A stretch of DNA of 47,396 nucleotides, taken from assembly GCA_020348445.1 (NCBI GenBank), contig CP070751.1:3318841-3366236 (forward strand). Reading direction: 5' to 3'. The position numbers were made by a program, and so were the translations under genes. The first letter of the stretch is position 1, and each line of letters begins with the position of its first letter. Under the pieces are notes generated by a model that searched no databases, was not told the DNA's origin, and saw only the letters and a program-made list of their open reading frames with translations. The DNA comes from Thermoplasmata archaeon (GTDB lineage Archaea > Thermoplasmatota > Thermoplasmata > GCA-020350865). Positions 21,217 to 33,416 of the stretch are shown one piece after another.

Positions 21217-21363
21217 CTACTTGCCTCCCTTATACGTCAGTATGTTCTCATATAACCGACTTTGGTAAAACGTCTTGCGACATCTTATATAAGCTTTATG
21301 TAAAAATTTTTACATAAAGCCTTTATACTCTAATATTCTCTATTCTTTTGAGTTGGGGGTATC

Positions 21364-27547: not shown

Positions 27548-28971
27548 ATCAAGCGCCTCAGTTTCCTCAATACCTGCTGGCCGGCGTAGTGGCGATACAG
27601 GTTTCTCTTGAGCTTTTTTCTGGAAAACACCCCCGCAATGTTTCTAGGAATTGAGCCGTACCTTTCCCTATAGCATTTCCACAATTCCTCCTGCACCTCC
27701 TTTAGCGCTAAGGTCTCTGTGGGCATGATGGCATGAGCCATGTCGTAATTGGCGTAATTTGGATCTTCTATCCACCCGTTCTTTTTTGCAGTTTTATAGT
27801 ACACTGTCCCTGGATATGGTGTAAGACATGTGTAAATCGAGAAATCAGAGCCCAGATCCATGGAAAACTGCCTCAGGTCATTTATTGATTCCTGGGTATC
27901 ATTTCTTGTACCGATGACGAACATTGCATGGGAGAATATATCGCTTTCGTTGAGAACTTTTACTGCTTTGTAGGAATCTGGAACAGAAATTCCCTTTTTA
28001 AATTCCTTAAGTGTTTCCTTGGAGTGACTCTCCACACCCATCATGACCCAGTAGTTACCTACTTCCCTGAACTTCGCCACCAGATCAGGATTGTTTGCCA
28101 CATCATCAGTTCTCGCCTGGAAAAACAGCATGATGTCATCCTTGAATTTTCTCTGTTTTAATTCACTATACAACTCCTTTCCCCGCCTTTGATAATCGAA
28201 GTTGTCATCTGTAAACCATATGAACTGCCCACCAAAACTATCGTTAAGATATTGCACTTCATCTGCAATCCGCTTTGCAGATTTAGTTCTCCAGGTTCTG
28301 TTCCAATGGCTCCATTGGGTGCAGAAGGAGCATTTATGAGTGCATCCCCTTGAGCCTTCCATCACCATATAGATCGTGTTCTTTCCTGCCATCATTGTGA
28401 AGTGATATTTTTTTGTCTGGTCTTCCACGAGATGATATGCAGGATAGGGTAACAAATCAAGGTTCTCGATTAGAGGACGATCTGGTGTATGGATGATATT
28501 TCCATTATGAGTAAATGATAATCCCTTCACATCTTTTGCGTTTTTACCATTTCTTAAAGTTTTGATAAGCTCGACAAGTGTCTGCTCCCCTTCTCCCCTG
28601 ACTATATAATCGATTTCTGGAAAATCAGAGAGGGATTCCTCTGGAACCTGTGAAAAGTGAAGTCCTCCAAGCACAGTCACGATGTCCTCATTTACCTTCT
28701 TGGCAATCTCTGCAACCCTAGCACAGGCATATGCATTGCAGGTGAATCCTGAAGTTGACACGATCCCTGGTGAGAATGATTCGACGTGTTTCCCTATATC
28801 CTCCCAGGTTTTTTCCTGGGCCTGGCAGTCCAGTATTTCTATTTCCATATCAGGTAATTCCCTTTCGACGTACGCTGCCAATATCAAAAGCACCGTGGGT
28901 GGAGGGAGATACTCACCCATGATAAACCAATAGTCCTTCGGAGGTTCCACAAACAGTATCTTTGAATTCAT
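27544..28971 (-). CDS. Cobalamin-binding (class B) radical SAM protein
   Basis: N-terminal B12-binding domain (PP..LL.LAAY, VLGGLH, YIVRGEGE), SRGCTHKCSFC, FTDDNF, GVES, TPYPGT. Confidence 0.9.
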   Translation of the reverse strand: MNSKILFVEPPKDYWFIMGEYLPPPTVLLILAAYVERELPDMEIEILDCQAQEKTWEDIGKHVESFSPGIVSTSGFTCNAYACARVAEIAKKVNEDIVTVLGGLHFSQVPEESLSDFPEIDYIVRGEGEQTLVELIKTLRNGKNAKDVKGLSFTHNGNIIHTPDRPLIENLDLLPYPAYHLVEDQTKKYHFTMMAGKNTIYMVMEGSRGCTHKCSFCTQWSHWNRTWRTKSAKRIADEVQYLNDSFGGQFIWFTDDNFDYQRRGKELYSELKQRKFKDDIMLFFQARTDDVANNPDLVAKFREVGNYWVMMGVESHSKETLKEFKKGISVPDSYKAVKVLNESDIFSHAMFVIGTRNDTQESINDLRQFSMDLGSDFSIYTCLTPYPGTVYYKTAKKNGWIEDPNYANYDMAHAIMPTETLALKEVQEELWKCYRERYGSIPRNIAGVFSRKKLKRNLYRHYAGQQVLRKLRRLI

Positions 28972-29155
28972 TTTTCCGGAATAGGTACATGGAAAATCAT
29001 TGAAATAGGTTACTGTCTATTTTGATTTACTTTGAGTAGTTCTTCTTAATTCTCGGTATCTTCTGATGAAGAAGGCCCATTTATATATAAATCATCACCT
29101 CCTGGTTACTTTATACAAAGATGATTTATATAAGAGGATTATCGTATTCAAACAA

Positions 29156-30016
29156 TTACCCAGATAGATGAGCCTTGTCAAGGGGAGAATCCTGCTCTTC
29201 AGATTCCACAACTATTGCCTCTTGGATGTTAGGAGCCATAAAGAGGGGCAAATTACTATCTTTTTCTTCACTTGTTACTAAATAGTTGGGAGGTGGATAG
29301 GTTCCATAAGGATTCTGGGGAGCAGGGGACTTTTTAAAGATGATGACCAATGCAAATATGATCACACAGACTGCAGAAAAAAGCAGTAACAATAGTAATC
29401 CCCCTGAGGAGTACTCCCCTTTTTCGCCTAAAATAGCATAACCATCTCCGTCACCATCACCTCCATCGGCTCCATCACCATCACCATCTCCATCCCCATA
29501 ACCATTATCGGTTGAAAACCTGGTACCTCTTCCTCCAAATTCCCTATCCAGATGAACACTTCCACTGCCCTTGATTGCGATCTTTCCACTTTCCAGTATT
29601 ATCAGTCTTATGTTGTAGGAATCATAGTTTGGTACAGTCAGTGAGAATTCGGAACTTACTGTTTTTTCAATTGGGATTTGACCAACTGCGAGTGTGGCTT
29701 TATCCATGGCGAGATTGCTGTCAACATCAATAGCAAATGCCTTAATCTCCACATCCTTTGCATCCAAAGTCCCTTTGTTTGTGATGAATGTCGTTATGTC
29801 GATTTTCACGTTTTCGGAATGAAAATCCGACCCAGATATCACAAAAAAAACTTCATCCACGTACAGCCTTGCTTGTTTTTCAGGTTCATCTGCTGGTGCA
29901 GGTGAAAGAGCACTGGCAACAACGACTACCATCACGAGGGCCAACACTATAATTCCCACGGATGCGATAATTCGCCTTCCCTGGGAATCCTCCAATTCCT
30001 TTTCTTTCTTATCCAT
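29156..30016 (-). CDS. Surface protein: N-terminal TM/signal, Ig-like domain (DUF7490-like), Gly/Asp linker, C-terminal TM
   Basis: RBS AGGTGA; beta-sandwich pattern ITTFITNKG...VEIKAFAIDVDSNL; GYGDGDGDGDGADGGDGDGDGY; hydrophobic LLLLLLF..IIFALVIIF-KK. Confidence 0.75.
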   Translation of the reverse strand: MDKKEKELEDSQGRRIIASVGIIVLALVMVVVVASALSPAPADEPEKQARLYVDEVFFVISGSDFHSENVKIDITTFITNKGTLDAKDVEIKAFAIDVDSNLAMDKATLAVGQIPIEKTVSSEFSLTVPNYDSYNIRLIILESGKIAIKGSGSVHLDREFGGRGTRFSTDNGYGDGDGDGDGADGGDGDGDGYAILGEKGEYSSGGLLLLLLFSAVCVIIFALVIIFKKSPAPQNPYGTYPPPNYLVTSEEKDSNLPLFMAPNIQEAIVVESEEQDSPLDKAHLSG

Positions 30017-30052
30017 TTCATATCACCTAAAATACTAATATTGGAGGGAGCG

Positions 30053-30107
30053 TTATTAAAGAAAGTTGGAACAAAATCAAGACAATTATTTAATGCTTCT
30101 GGAACAC
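30053..30107 (-). promoter_or_regulatory. Promoter with GTTCCA operator pair (gene 29156..30016)
   Basis: Sense strand: GTGTTCCA (30107-30100) ... GTTCCAA (30072-30066) - N5 - TTTAATAA (30060-30053). Confidence 0.7.
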
Positions 30108-30222
30108 ATTTGCATGTATATAAAAAAAATAGGTTTGACATAAATTATGTTAGAAGACAATCCATTTTACCTTCGTGTTTTTAGGGTGACAGATAAGAAA
30201 AAGGAAGTACATTGTAAAAAAT

Positions 30223-30369
30223 CTACTGCCCCTCACCTTCCACATTAAGCGGAAAATTTTCCTTTAACCAATCCCAGCAAACTTTGCAGCAGCCCTCGCC
30301 TTCTTTTGTGTAGGCATGTATCTTATTTTCTTCGGCCACTGTCTTCATACATATGCTGCACTTGTCCAT
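30223..30369 (-). CDS. 48-aa zinc-finger microprotein (not in the ORF track)
   Basis: MDKCSICMKTVAEENKIHAYTKEGEGCCKVCWDWLKENFPLNVEGEGQ*; RBS-like GGAG(TTGAG); TTTATAA upstream. Confidence 0.65.
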   Translation of the reverse strand: MDKCSICMKTVAEENKIHAYTKEGEGCCKVCWDWLKENFPLNVEGEGQ

Positions 30370-30552
30370 TTTCTCAACTCCAATATAGGATGTTAAAGGA
30401 ACCTCAGAGAATATAAAAATTGCGCTTTGTTAAAGCCCCTTATAAACTACCTATAAAAAATAAAAAGACCCCCAAACCTAAACAAAAGGAAATAAGTGGG
30501 TAGGGAAGCTGAGGTATTAAGGAGGAGGTACGAAATTGGGGGTCCATGAGAT

Positions 30553-31506
30553 TTATTTAGGATTTTTTTTCTTAATTGAATAGATCCAAACTCCAATTGC
30601 ACTAACTACCAATCCTACAAGAAGACCACTTAATGCAAGGTAATTAATATTTGAATCCGTACATGATTGCATATCGTTGGTTCCACCTGAAACAATACCA
30701 GAATCAGATTCAGAGTCAGTGATTTCTTCTGGCTCAAGGGAAAAGTTTGCATAAGTGATCTCTGAAACCGCTACCAACTGGGATTGGCTCTTATATCCCC
30801 TTTTATATGCTGATACATTTTTGAGACAAAAGCAAATAGGAACATCATAGAAGGTGTACCAACCTTCTGAATCTGTGTACTCCGTGCGAGTGGTGCCATG
30901 ATATTCAAGGATCATCTTGACATCAGCAATTGGTAAATCAGTCTCAGAATCAGTTACAATGCCAGTTATAATACCTTCCATAGGTTCATCATCTTTTGGT
31001 GGAGTTGGGATAGGAGTTCTATCAGGCTCATCTGGATCCTCAGGTGGGTCCTTTGGATCTTCGGGATCTTCGGGTTCATCTGGATCCTCTGGTTCTTCGG
31101 GCTCATCAGGCTCATCTTTATCATTGGTTGGTACCAATGAAAAATCCACATATGTGATATCATAAACAGCCACCAATTTGTATTGACCTTCATATCCTAT
31201 TTTGTTTGCAGATACATTCTTTAGACAGAAGCATTCTGGAACATTTGTAAAGTAGTATTTACCCTGCTCATCTGTGAGCGTTGTGCGAACCATATCATGA
31301 TAAGTCAAGGTCATCAATGCTCCTTGAATTGGTCTTTCTGTTTCACAATCTGTCACAAATCCTATGATTGTACCTTCAGGTCTTAATATGCTCACATTCA
31401 CAAAGCCCTGAACTTGTATGGCTGAAATTACCATCAATAAGACACAAAATGCTGCTAAATACACTCTCATGAACGTTTTATTCTTACTTCGGCCAGTTCT
31501 TTTCAT
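30553..31506 (-). CDS. Surface protein with two carboxypeptidase-regulatory-like (Cna/TTR-like) domains, P/D/E linker and C-terminal TM
   Basis: Signal peptide; two homologous G.I.G.VTD.ET..PI.....L.YH...RT..TD..G.Y.F..VP.CFCLKNVSA.K.GY units; EPEDPD repeats; TM + KKKNPK. Confidence 0.8.
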   Translation of the reverse strand: MKRTGRSKNKTFMRVYLAAFCVLLMVISAIQVQGFVNVSILRPEGTIIGFVTDCETERPIQGALMTLTYHDMVRTTLTDEQGKYYFTNVPECFCLKNVSANKIGYEGQYKLVAVYDITYVDFSLVPTNDKDEPDEPEEPEDPDEPEDPEDPKDPPEDPDEPDRTPIPTPPKDDEPMEGIITGIVTDSETDLPIADVKMILEYHGTTRTEYTDSEGWYTFYDVPICFCLKNVSAYKRGYKSQSQLVAVSEITYANFSLEPEEITDSESDSGIVSGGTNDMQSCTDSNINYLALSGLLVGLVVSAIGVWIYSIKKKNPK

Positions 31507-31550
31507 CCCATATCACTCTCCTATTATCCTTAAAAATTAATTGATGGCAG

Positions 31551-31606
31551 TATTAATAACAAGTTTGGAACGCTTTCTTCTCAATTATATATAGTTAATG
31601 GAACAC
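31551..31606 (-). promoter_or_regulatory. Promoter with GTTCCA operator pair (gene 30553..31506)
   Basis: Sense strand: GTGTTCCA (31606-31599) ... GTTCCAA (31571-31565) - N5 - TTATTAATA (31559-31551). Confidence 0.7.
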
Positions 31607-31626
31607 TATCTGCGAAAAAGTAGAGA

Positions 31627-32634
31627 TTATCTTTGTCCCATCTCCCATGCTCTTAGGTCCCTGGGATAGCAGGCAGATTCCCTTCCCTGTCTCTCTACAA
31701 ATATTAGTCCCGCTTGATCCAGGATGTTCACGTGATAATTTACTACCTTTCTTGAAACACTTATCCTCTCGGCGATCTTGCTCTGGGATATACCCTGGTT
31801 CTCCTTTATGACACTGAGTATCGATTCCTGGATATCGGACAAAAAGAACCGCATATCTGTTTTCGGTCCTTTTGTGTAGAACCGCCTGTACATTCCGTCT
31901 TGCCGCGACCTGATATACTGTGCTTTTTCCAGACGATTCAAATGATAGGAGAGCACCCCCATTGGTAAATTAAGTTCATTTAGAATTCCGCGGTAATGCA
32001 TTCCGGGATTTTCATTGACATAATCAAAGATTCGCTTTCTTACAGCATTTTTCAGCATGTTCTCCCGCTTGATCTTAGAGTACATTATTAATGATAATAA
32101 GATGGCTATGATAATGACAAAAAAAGTCTGAAAGAATAAGGAAAAATGAAATGCCCCTTCACCTTTTTCATCATCACCAGGACCAGTCCCGCCCCCGTCC
32201 CTGTCTCCGTCTCCATCCCATCCTCCACCATCTCCATTTCCATCTCCCCCATCCTCATAAATTGGAACAAGATCCACATCCAGCAGTACTGCATCTTCTC
32301 CTCCAAATGTTTGACTTTGTATCTCGACTTCGTGATATTGGGCAAGATATCCTTCAGCAGAAATGGTCACAGTATAGGTACCAGCGTCTAGACCAGTTAC
32401 ATTATAGTATCCATCAGATGCGGTTACGGTTGTAGCAATCACATCTCCAGTTTCGGAGGAAGCTATAGACACAGAGGCATTGGCAATGGGTTCACCTGTG
32501 TTTCTATCTATAACAGTACCACAAATGGAGCCCCCTTGAGCACTGACAGAACCAATGAATAAAAATAGTAATATAAAACAAATACCTAGGAAGATTATAA
32601 TATTTGCAGTTAACCTATTTAAACGCTTTTTCAT
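31627..32634 (-). CDS. Membrane-anchored transcriptional regulator: signal peptide, extracellular carboxypeptidase-regulatory-like domain, G/D linker, TM, cytoplasmic tandem winged-HTH
   Basis: GSICGTVID..TGEPIANASV...GYYNVTGLDAGTYTVTISAEGY; TM FFVIIIAILLSLIMY; wHTH1 PGMHYRGILNELNLPMGVLSYHLNRLE; wHTH2 GISQSKIAERISVSRKVVNYHVNIL. Confidence 0.85.
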   Translation of the reverse strand: MKKRLNRLTANIIIFLGICFILLFLFIGSVSAQGGSICGTVIDRNTGEPIANASVSIASSETGDVIATTVTASDGYYNVTGLDAGTYTVTISAEGYLAQYHEVEIQSQTFGGEDAVLLDVDLVPIYEDGGDGNGDGGGWDGDGDRDGGGTGPGDDEKGEGAFHFSLFFQTFFVIIIAILLSLIMYSKIKRENMLKNAVRKRIFDYVNENPGMHYRGILNELNLPMGVLSYHLNRLEKAQYIRSRQDGMYRRFYTKGPKTDMRFFLSDIQESILSVIKENQGISQSKIAERISVSRKVVNYHVNILDQAGLIFVERQGRESACYPRDLRAWEMGQR

Positions 32635-32674
32635 GGAAATTCTTCCTGATATAGATTAATATATATTAAATACC

Positions 32675-32696
32675 TTATTAAATATAATTGGAACAC
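32675..32696 (-). promoter_or_regulatory. Promoter of the regulator gene with GTTCCA operator
   Basis: Sense strand: GTGTTCCAA (32696-32688) - N5 - TTTAATAA (32682-32675). Confidence 0.7.
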
Positions 32697-32720
32697 TTTT
32701 TGGACAGTTTTTATTAGTAT

Positions 32721-33416
32721 CTAACCTTTAATCTCGATTTTTATGTCTTTTGGTTCCTCAACTCCTTTTAAAGAGGAAACCATACCCGCAATAGTCCCAG
32801 CCACCATCTCCTTGGCAAATTTGCCCAATGGGATTTCATTTCCGCCTACTTCCAAAGAAACCCTCTTTTCAGAAAAATAATAGCAGTCTTCAAATGTGTT
32901 TTCGTCATTTCTTATTCCCCCAGCTAGCTGTTTACAGGTATCCATACCACACTTTCCGCAATCAAGGCCCGGAAGCTGTTTAAGAACCCTTTCCTCCTCA
33001 ATACCTTCAAATGCAAATCCAAGTATCTTATCAAAATTATCCTTGTACCTCAGCACGGTGTTTGGCTTTTCTTCAATTTCGCCCACTGCAACCTTGGGGC
33101 TGTCATCCTCCCAGTATCCCTCAACCAGAACAATATCCAGTCCTGCCATGCCTTCAATTATGGCTGTAACTTCCGAAGGAGACATTGAATAATTCACCAG
33201 AAATGCAACCTCATCTTCTGATCGTGCAACCACGACTTGGGCTCCTGCTTGTGTGTGCTCCCATGTGTCTTTACCCTCGGTATCAATGGTGAATCCCTTT
33301 TGATGTATGTTTTTTATAGAGCCTACTTTGTAGCCTTTCTTCTTCAACTCGCCAATCAACCTCGAAATCAAGGAGGTTTTCCCTGATTTTGATTTACCAT
33401 AGATTCCCAGTATCAT
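32721..33416 (-). CDS. mobB: MobB with C-terminal putative Fe-S domain
   Basis: GKSKSGKTS P-loop, IKNIH, DTEGKDTWEH, LVEG; LPGLDCGKCG..TC...C. Confidence 0.88.
   Translation of the reverse strand: MILGIYGKSKSGKTSLISRLIGELKKKGYKVGSIKNIHQKGFTIDTEGKDTWEHTQAGAQVVVARSEDEVAFLVNYSMSPSEVTAIIEGMAGLDIVLVEGYWEDDSPKVAVGEIEEKPNTVLRYKDNFDKILGFAFEGIEEERVLKQLPGLDCGKCGMDTCKQLAGGIRNDENTFEDCYYFSEKRVSLEVGGNEIPLGKFAKEMVAGTIAGMVSSLKGVEEPKDIKIEIKG

Follow-up and report, generated by a model that had tools for sequence, protein, structure and literature searches.

Introduction

Transmembrane transcription regulators (TTRs), with ToxR, TcpP and CadC as bacterial prototypes, were defined and censused by Demey et al. 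in 2023, who found single-pass proteins to be the most frequent (PMC10269533). In Sulfolobus acidocaldarius, ArnR and ArnR1 are membrane-bound one-component activators of cell-surface structure genes, and ArnR uses two cis boxes upstream of the TFB-recognition element (BRE) and TATA box, both of which are needed for binding (PMC6396743). Ptr2 from M. jannaschii, TFB-RF1 from P. furiosus and EarA from M. maripaludis are activators that bind directly upstream of the BRE, at promoters with a weak BRE or TATA box and multiple sites each, with recruitment of TATA-binding protein (TBP) or transcription factor B (TFB) (PMC5512572). Here we analyze a stretch of 47,396 nucleotides from a Thermoplasmata archaeon (contig CP070751.1; the whole stretch is called the window below), in which three consecutive minus-strand genes, i.e., a putative membrane-bound regulator (31627-32634, 335 aa), gene B (30553-31506, 317 aa) and gene C (29156-30016, 286 aa), share a promoter box with the hexamer GTTCCA. 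An earlier note on this DNA had proposed that the regulator binds the box, controls its own gene and activates its neighbours. In sequence comparison, the box is specific and deeply conserved, beside the same genes in about 15 distant relatives, and it very probably is a real gene switch.

Domain structure of the regulator and comparison with known systems

From Pfam matches, the translation and an AlphaFold2 model, the regulator is predicted to contain a signal peptide, a CarboxypepD_reg β-sandwich (residues 37-108), a Gly/Asp-rich linker, one transmembrane (TM) helix (~163-185) and a cytoplasmic tandem of winged helix-turn-helix (wHTH) domains. The tandem consists of HTH_HVO_0163_N (residues 197-255, 59.8 bits, cut-off 31) and HTH_24 (residues 265-311, 65 bits, cut-off 21.9), the order found in tandem wHTH proteins of the HVO_0163 type, i.e., PF24266 above its gathering score followed by a second wHTH; HTH_20, HTH_5 and MarR_2 matched as well. 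In the translation, the basic segment SKIKRENMLK comes after the hydrophobic stretch FHFSLFFQTFFVIIIAILLSLIMY, and the model has a signal-like N-terminal helix (3-27) and an unbroken helix from 163 to 208. The linker between the two wHTH domains has a predicted local distance difference test score (pLDDT) below 50, and their relative orientation is therefore not reliably modelled. Foldseek searches with the full model returned β-sandwich matches only. The cytoplasmic part matched single ArsR/MarR domains, such as 6j05_A (ArsR, root-mean-square deviation (rmsd) 2.4 over 70 columns) and 1s3j_A (MarR-type, rmsd 1.4 over 65 columns), and weakly tandem winged-helix proteins (TFIIIC, a Pol III pre-initiation-complex chain and ScpB, rmsd above 12 Å), matches that are uninformative about how the two domains are oriented. 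Among solved structures, sequence similarity was detectable only for PDB 5DUK (E = 1.8e-9), which aligns to the first wHTH; it is an uncharacterised single domain of 77 aa with no membrane part, and its molecule name, 'putative DNA binding protein', is uninformative on function.

At least one predicted TM region and a DNA-binding domain lie in the same polypeptide, as in the operational definition of TTRs, and like these the regulator is presumed to act from the membrane (PMC10269533). In contrast to the TTR prototypes with their N-terminal OmpR-type domain, however, it carries an ArsR/MarR-like winged-helix pair (PF24266 and PF13412) at its C-terminus. The ectodomain also sets it apart from them, being a transthyretin-like β-sandwich and, in paralogues, a giant adhesin-like protein. 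One genome holds about 20 tandem-wHTH copies, compared with an archaeal TTR mean of about 4, and the TTR census lists no operator or regulon for the family (PMC10269533).

ArnR is the closest studied analogue, and the membrane anchoring and the pair of boxes ahead of the core promoter resemble it (PMC6396743). ArnR, however, has its HTH at the N-terminus and two TM helices at the C-terminus, contains HAMP and sensor domains and is wholly cytoplasmic, whereas the regulator proceeds from an ectodomain through the TM helix to a C-terminal tandem wHTH; HAMP found no match in the Pfam scan of the regulator. The boxes of ArnR are inverted repeats (TCGAC-N5-GTCGA) at -43 to -84, whereas the local boxes are direct (TGTC / TGTTCC), non-palindromic and abut the TATA box. 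We saw no hint that the two proteins are homologous outside the HTH fold, although they were not compared directly. In their placement immediately before the BRE slot, which they partly cover, the local boxes resemble the sites of Ptr2, TFB-RF1 and EarA, but these activators are soluble, belong to other families and are neither membrane-anchored nor tandem wHTH proteins; Ptr2, which carries a RAM domain, belongs to Lrp/AsnC, and TACATA is the sequence recognised by EarA. HTH_24 does match the regulator, but the RAM domain (AsnC_trans_reg) was not among the best 25 of its 28 matched families (E≤0.01). ArsR/SmtB or MarR repressors have the wHTH fold in common with the regulator, but act as homodimers, with a ligand or metal site, on palindromic operators, whereas here two wHTH domains lie in one chain and the operator is non-palindromic. 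The regulator is not a member of the ArnR, ToxR, Lrp or classical ArsR/MarR families.

The earlier note was aware of no described system of this kind. Membrane-bound archaeal regulators of surface structures are already known (PMC6396743, PMC10269533), and the operator and family at this locus form a variant of that kind. For the regulator family and the operator themselves, our full-text literature searches found no description.

Organization of the box at the three promoters

We read the minus strand of the window from 28800 to 33000 and listed its open reading frames (ORFs). P1, P2 and P3 denote the promoters of the regulator gene, gene B and gene C, respectively, with all coordinates on the minus strand. 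At all three, GTTCCA precedes a TATA-like box (an octamer) by 6-7 nt, which agrees with the GTTCCAA box reported earlier. The pattern given for it, GTTCCAA-N5-TT(T/A)(A/T)(A/T)AA, fits P2, whereas P1 and P3 read TTTAATAA instead. P1 (32675-32707) has a single unit, CTGTCC AAAAAG TGTTCCAAT N5 TTTAATAA, composed of half-site 1 TGTCC (32706-32702), half-site 2 GTGTTCCAAT (32696-32687) and the TATA box TTTAATAA (32682-32675); TGTC and an A-tract form the upstream extension (32706-32697), and the ATG follows 60 nt past the G of GTTCCA.

P2 and P3 are double units, in which a further box precedes the first by exactly 33 nt, as had been noticed before. P2 (31551-31606) contains the distal box GTGTTCCA (31606-31599) with the TATA-like box TATATATAA (31593-31585) and the proximal box GTTCCAAA (31571-31564) with TTATTAATA (31559-31551). 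In P3 (30053-30107), the distal box GTGTTCCA (30107-30100) and its TATA-like box ATTAAATAA (30094-30086) are followed by a middle TTGTC (30085-30081), the proximal box GTTCCAA (30072-30066) and the TATA box TTTAATAA (30060-30053). The distal boxes of both promoters have their own TATA-like box at the same distance as the proximal ones.

The full element is longer than previously given and reads TGTC-N2-AAAAG-TGTTCCAA-N5-TATA. Its conserved core, AAtTGTCC-AAA-AAGTGTTCCAA, consists of two direct half-sites that resemble each other and are spaced ~11 nt apart, and it stops 5-6 nt before TATA; the direct half-sites recur in the alignments, in keeping with the non-palindromic site described in the earlier note. 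GTTCCAA-N5-TTWWWWA has nine matches in the 5.16-Mb genome, three of them within this 2.6 kb. The arrangement is absent from the promoter of a microprotein ORF between genes B and C (30370-30552), as noted before, and from the other intergenic regions of the window, where the only further profile matches belong to a different, palindromic site (21283-21330). That the arrangement is confined to this locus holds within the window, but related sites are numerous elsewhere in the genome.

Conservation in orthologous loci

Orthologous loci were retrieved from metagenomes and species-representative genomes with protein similarity as the sole criterion. The regulator has 127 database homologues at E≤1e-20; the 120 listed all have the tandem wHTH and, except for a few shorter ones, CarboxypepD_reg. 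Fifteen orthologues (43-66% aa identity, loci of 37-67% GC) keep ..TGTC..A.GTGT[TA]CCA..T..ATA at 53-88 nt ahead of the start codon. An alignment of 11 orthologous regulator promoters, again spanning 37-67% GC, has ..TC..A.GTGT.CCA..T..ATA invariant, with a majority-base frequency of 0.83 over the 33-column block versus 0.50 in the flanks, and the box is also present at four loci beyond this alignment, i.e., three high-GC loci and the genus relative G003.

A second alignment comprises ten target promoters, from gene-B homologues (5 loci), gene-C homologues (3 loci), a VIT-vWA gene (1 locus) and the local P2. In all ten, the distal and proximal boxes are exactly 33 nt apart, with the consensus AGTGTTCCAcAA-N3-TtATATAATtGTC-NN-AAAAGTGTTCCAAA-N5-TTTTTA. 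A gene-B homologue lies directly downstream of the regulator orthologue in six loci (L059, L060, L061, L063, L065 and L082), and L070 has a gene-C homologue with the same double box. Since the flanking genes vary between loci, regulator and gene B travel as a two-gene module.

Within the genus, orthologues of the regulator occur in G004 (58% identity) and G003 (50%) and are lacking in G001 and G002; a homologue of gene B was not found in any of these four relatives. G004 has GTGTTCCAAT upstream of the regulator and, past the microprotein, a double box 33 nt apart (L002:2744/2777), which most likely precedes a partial gene-C orthologue starting contig C299 (G004:C299). In G003, an identical CAAAAAGTGTTCCAAT stands before a vWA gene just upstream of the regulator. 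The earlier note had allowed that the motif might not be conserved in orthologous loci; it is kept at both regulator and downstream-gene promoters, with the same 33-nt layout.

An independent profile trained on foreign sites only was run over the 5.16-Mb genome. Its best match lies at the first of two adjacent DUF7948/SBBP genes (38.1 bits), followed by P1 (36.6 bits), the second DUF7948/SBBP gene (33.9 bits) and a 1271-aa gene, which in addition carries AATCCA as a distal box at -33 (rank 4, 32.2 bits); the proximal boxes of P2 (26.4 bits) and P3 (17.5 bits) hold ranks 6 and 16. The profile recovers the local boxes, but its matches go beyond three genes, and the regulon of three promoters put forward in the earlier note can no longer be upheld. 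The predicted regulon is larger and is one branch of a lineage-wide surface-protein promoter class.

A promoter class for large surface proteins

In 453 promoters of the genome aligned on TATA, we found only a weak A enrichment at -7 to -3 (BRE), and both GTTCCA and the CAAAAA / A-tract block were absent. A generic BRE variant, which the earlier note had considered, was rejected since these ordinary promoters lack the box.

A class profile, started from the five local sites and refined in repeated rounds on the intergenic DNA of the genome, converged on T-g-CAAAAA-t-TGTTCCAAA-N4-TTTATA. We counted 75 intergenic matches at ≥14 bits, compared with about 6 in simulated intergenic DNA, and 49 compared with 0 at ≥22 bits, counts that err on the high side, as these matches themselves served to train the profile. 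By these matches, the box is a local sub-type of a genus-wide promoter class with about 60-75 sites in the genome. Among the 57 genes behind class sites, 72% encode at least 700 aa with an N-terminal hydrophobic segment, compared with 8% of other genes (p = 3e-32); such genome-wide statistics use crude longest-ORF gene calls and a simple N-terminal hydrophobicity rule for 'secreted'. Pfam matches in 17 of 19 scanned targets were β-helix/NosD, PKD, SBBP, FG-GAP, DUF7948 or WD40-like, one target also having a tandem wHTH. Unit pairs 32-33 nt apart occur at four further promoters. Sites of the class also lie in a gene cluster at 2.02-2.05 Mb of the genome.

The class is kept in all four other genus genomes, including G001 and G002, and a search of one sister-family genome did not find it. 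Across 151 genomes, the exact pattern AA-N4-GTWCCA-N7-TTTATA has about 57 matches, clustered in 5 families, compared with about 12 for controls; sparse as these matches are, they suggest that the box is older than the genus. The link between gene and box may also predate the genus, as homologous wHTH genes from other families of the taxonomic class (L014 in G024, L017 in G006, L013 in G012, L024 in G017) are flanked by AAAA-N4-GTACCA or TTTCCA, with N7-TTTATA or a near variant, and L014 has boxes at 2167 and 2200, a 33-nt pair.

For the DUF7948 targets, only the C-terminal domain has homologues in genus relatives. The C-terminal ~170 aa (~733-904) of the DUF7948/SBBP protein L038 (G000:C1:2304263-2306977) match about 80 places in the genome, nearly all of them C-termini of large ORFs (42-65% identity), and 5-36 places per genus relative. 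This stretch looks like a lineage-specific surface-protein module, possibly for anchoring or sorting.

Paralogues of the regulator and box variants

About 20 paralogues in the genome combine a TM helix with the same tandem wHTH at the C-terminus, in ORFs of up to ~2460 aa, and one of them, L043, has the same pair of PF24266 and a second wHTH. Some 14 of the 20 genes carry the class motif upstream or lie in an operon behind one. The promoter class would, by this distribution, drive large secreted surface proteins together with most of the membrane tandem-wHTH paralogues.

Box variants fall into discrete sub-classes: TGTC..GTGTTCCA is found at this locus, and GGCAAAAATC-ATTCCA, ATGCAAAA-TTTCCA and TTCAAAAATT-GTTCTA elsewhere. 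Several sub-classes count the promoter of a single wHTH paralogue among their members. Among orthologues of the regulator, the recognition helices do not vary (R295-H301, G226, H231); they differ among paralogues, whose promoters carry other sub-classes. This correspondence is suggestive only, as it is confounded by shared ancestry. We tentatively propose, while rating it rather doubtful, that the ~20 membrane tandem-wHTH proteins are surface-to-promoter switches, each with its own box variant and controlling itself and a few giant surface proteins.

A separate sub-class was seen at 16 promoters (e.g., 3097486, 2719418, 2073456 and 1293029), with ATTCAAAAATT-GTTCTA-AAAC or a close variant in 15 of them. 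Four of its scanned targets are β-helix/NosD proteins and one is an FG-GAP protein; another site precedes a PKD-domain gene. This variant stands at no wHTH gene's own promoter, except possibly for an operon at 4339957.

Neighbouring genes and other sites

Gene B encodes two CarboxypepD_reg domains, with a CFCLKNVSA motif, between a signal peptide and a Pro/Asp/Glu linker, and a TM anchor at the C-terminus. The gene C product has an N-terminal TM segment, a DUF7490 (CARDB-like) domain, a Gly/Asp linker, a second TM segment and a cytoplasmic tail. MoeA and MobB are encoded upstream of the three genes. Between genes B and C lies a Cys-rich microprotein ORF (CxxC...CCxxC; 30223-30369, minus strand, 48 aa), which we rejected as a member of the module. 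It is 76-87% identical across all five genus genomes and always adjoins MoeA-MobB, also in the two genomes without the regulator, and is therefore linked to the molybdopterin genes and not to the surface module.

At 21283-21330 of the window, a perfect 28-nt inverted repeat (GCTTTATGTAAAAA and TTTTTACATAAAGC) lies between two divergent TATA boxes, and TGTAAAAATTTTTACA sites resembling it occur at two more places of the genome (G000 4243758 and 1433534). This repeat probably serves another regulator as its operator.

Discussion

Co-inheritance of a gene and a site is the usual comparative-genomic ground for assigning the site to the adjacent regulator. We provisionally assign the box to the adjacent regulator since gene and site are co-inherited across loci, and we lean towards a reading in which this type-I membrane protein binds the box with its cytoplasmic tandem wHTH, autoregulates and activates its neighbours. 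The three promoters would then carry the cognate operator of the regulator gene, and one polypeptide would read both half-sites, AAtTGTCC and AAGTGTTCCAA, from the membrane; half-sites one helical turn apart match what would be expected for a single chain with two non-identical wHTH domains. The single unit at P1 would serve autoregulation, and at genes B and C the second box, three helical turns (33 bp) further up, would let a second molecule bind cooperatively. Once bound, the protein would most likely assist the loading of TBP/TFB and act as an activator, because the site lies just upstream of and touches the BRE position in promoters without a strong BRE. The ectodomain, which has the same fold as the domains of its target B, would couple envelope state or an external ligand to transcriptional output. 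The module would be one of ~20 paralogous membrane tandem-wHTH regulators that mark a promoter class for large secreted proteins.

Several points weigh against this assignment. It comes from adjacency and co-conservation, and the uncertain orientation of the two wHTH domains adds to this. The paralogue closest in HTH sequence is not the one with the most similar box. As the proximal half-site overlaps the BRE position, the protein could also repress by competing with TFB. A simple activator model leaves the conserved TATA-like box of the distal unit unexplained, and the wHTH part could possibly be released by proteolysis instead of acting from the membrane. Moreover, most sites of the wider class are not beside a wHTH gene, so that one shared factor could serve all of them. 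Such a factor, soluble or a single master member of the family, might run the whole surface-protein class, with the local wHTH gene merely a member of its regulon. Only about 10 of the 57 genes fronted by the ~60-75 class sites are wHTH genes, GTTCCA recurs in several sub-classes, and the class persists in G001 and G002 without a regulator orthologue. Nevertheless, the local sub-type TGTC-NN-AAAAGTGTTCCA accompanies the regulator orthologue through loci with differing neighbours, discrete sub-classes tend to contain the promoter of one wHTH paralogue, and the small soluble tandem-wHTH homologues of the genome have no motif at their own genes. We regard a different trans-acting factor as a serious but less probable explanation.

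The basal machinery, e.g., a second TBP together with TFB, could also read the box as an extended core-promoter element, which would mark a strong or alternative type of envelope-gene promoter without a dedicated regulator. The fixed spacing to TATA fits this, as does the conserved TATA-like box of every unit, the distal ones included, even at 61-66% GC, and the genome has two TBP genes (G000:C1:3496047-3496559 and 4674147-4674668). We detected, however, only one TFB gene in the assembly, which has 35 kb of masked N, and an alternative TFB reading the box is unlikely. The conserved bases lie 7-25 bp upstream of TATA, past the BRE, and TBP is not known to read such sequence. With the box missing from generic promoters and split into discrete sub-classes, we consider a core-promoter element improbable. 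Chance, or a recent duplication of promoters along with their genes, without regulatory meaning, is very improbable: although some class sites in recently duplicated gene families are nearly identical over 30 nt and gene B may have been inserted locally, the conserved bases form blocks separated by free spacers at 37-67% GC and 43-66% protein identity, no simulated match reached 22 bits, and the target genes have unrelated domain content.

Coupling of the cell envelope to transcription is little known in archaea, where ArnR and ArnR1 are the only studied membrane-bound factors we found. The locus is a compact and directly testable case, with a 335-aa protein, a soluble DNA-binding tail of 150 aa, two to six predicted target genes and a 33-bp operator defined to single-base resolution by the comparison of ~15 lineages. 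The regulator would be a rare tandem-wHTH monomer that reads direct-repeat half-sites next to an archaeal TATA box. Its source lineage, abundant and uncultured sediment Thermoplasmata, has ~290 large secreted proteins in this genome by a crude count, and the system could help to explain how their surface proteome is controlled. If each of the paralogues did have its own operator, the family would be an archaeal counterpart of extracytoplasmic function (ECF) sigma/anti-sigma systems or of the polysaccharide-sensor expansions of Bacteroides, in which a single polypeptide suffices and the ectodomain can itself be an adhesin.

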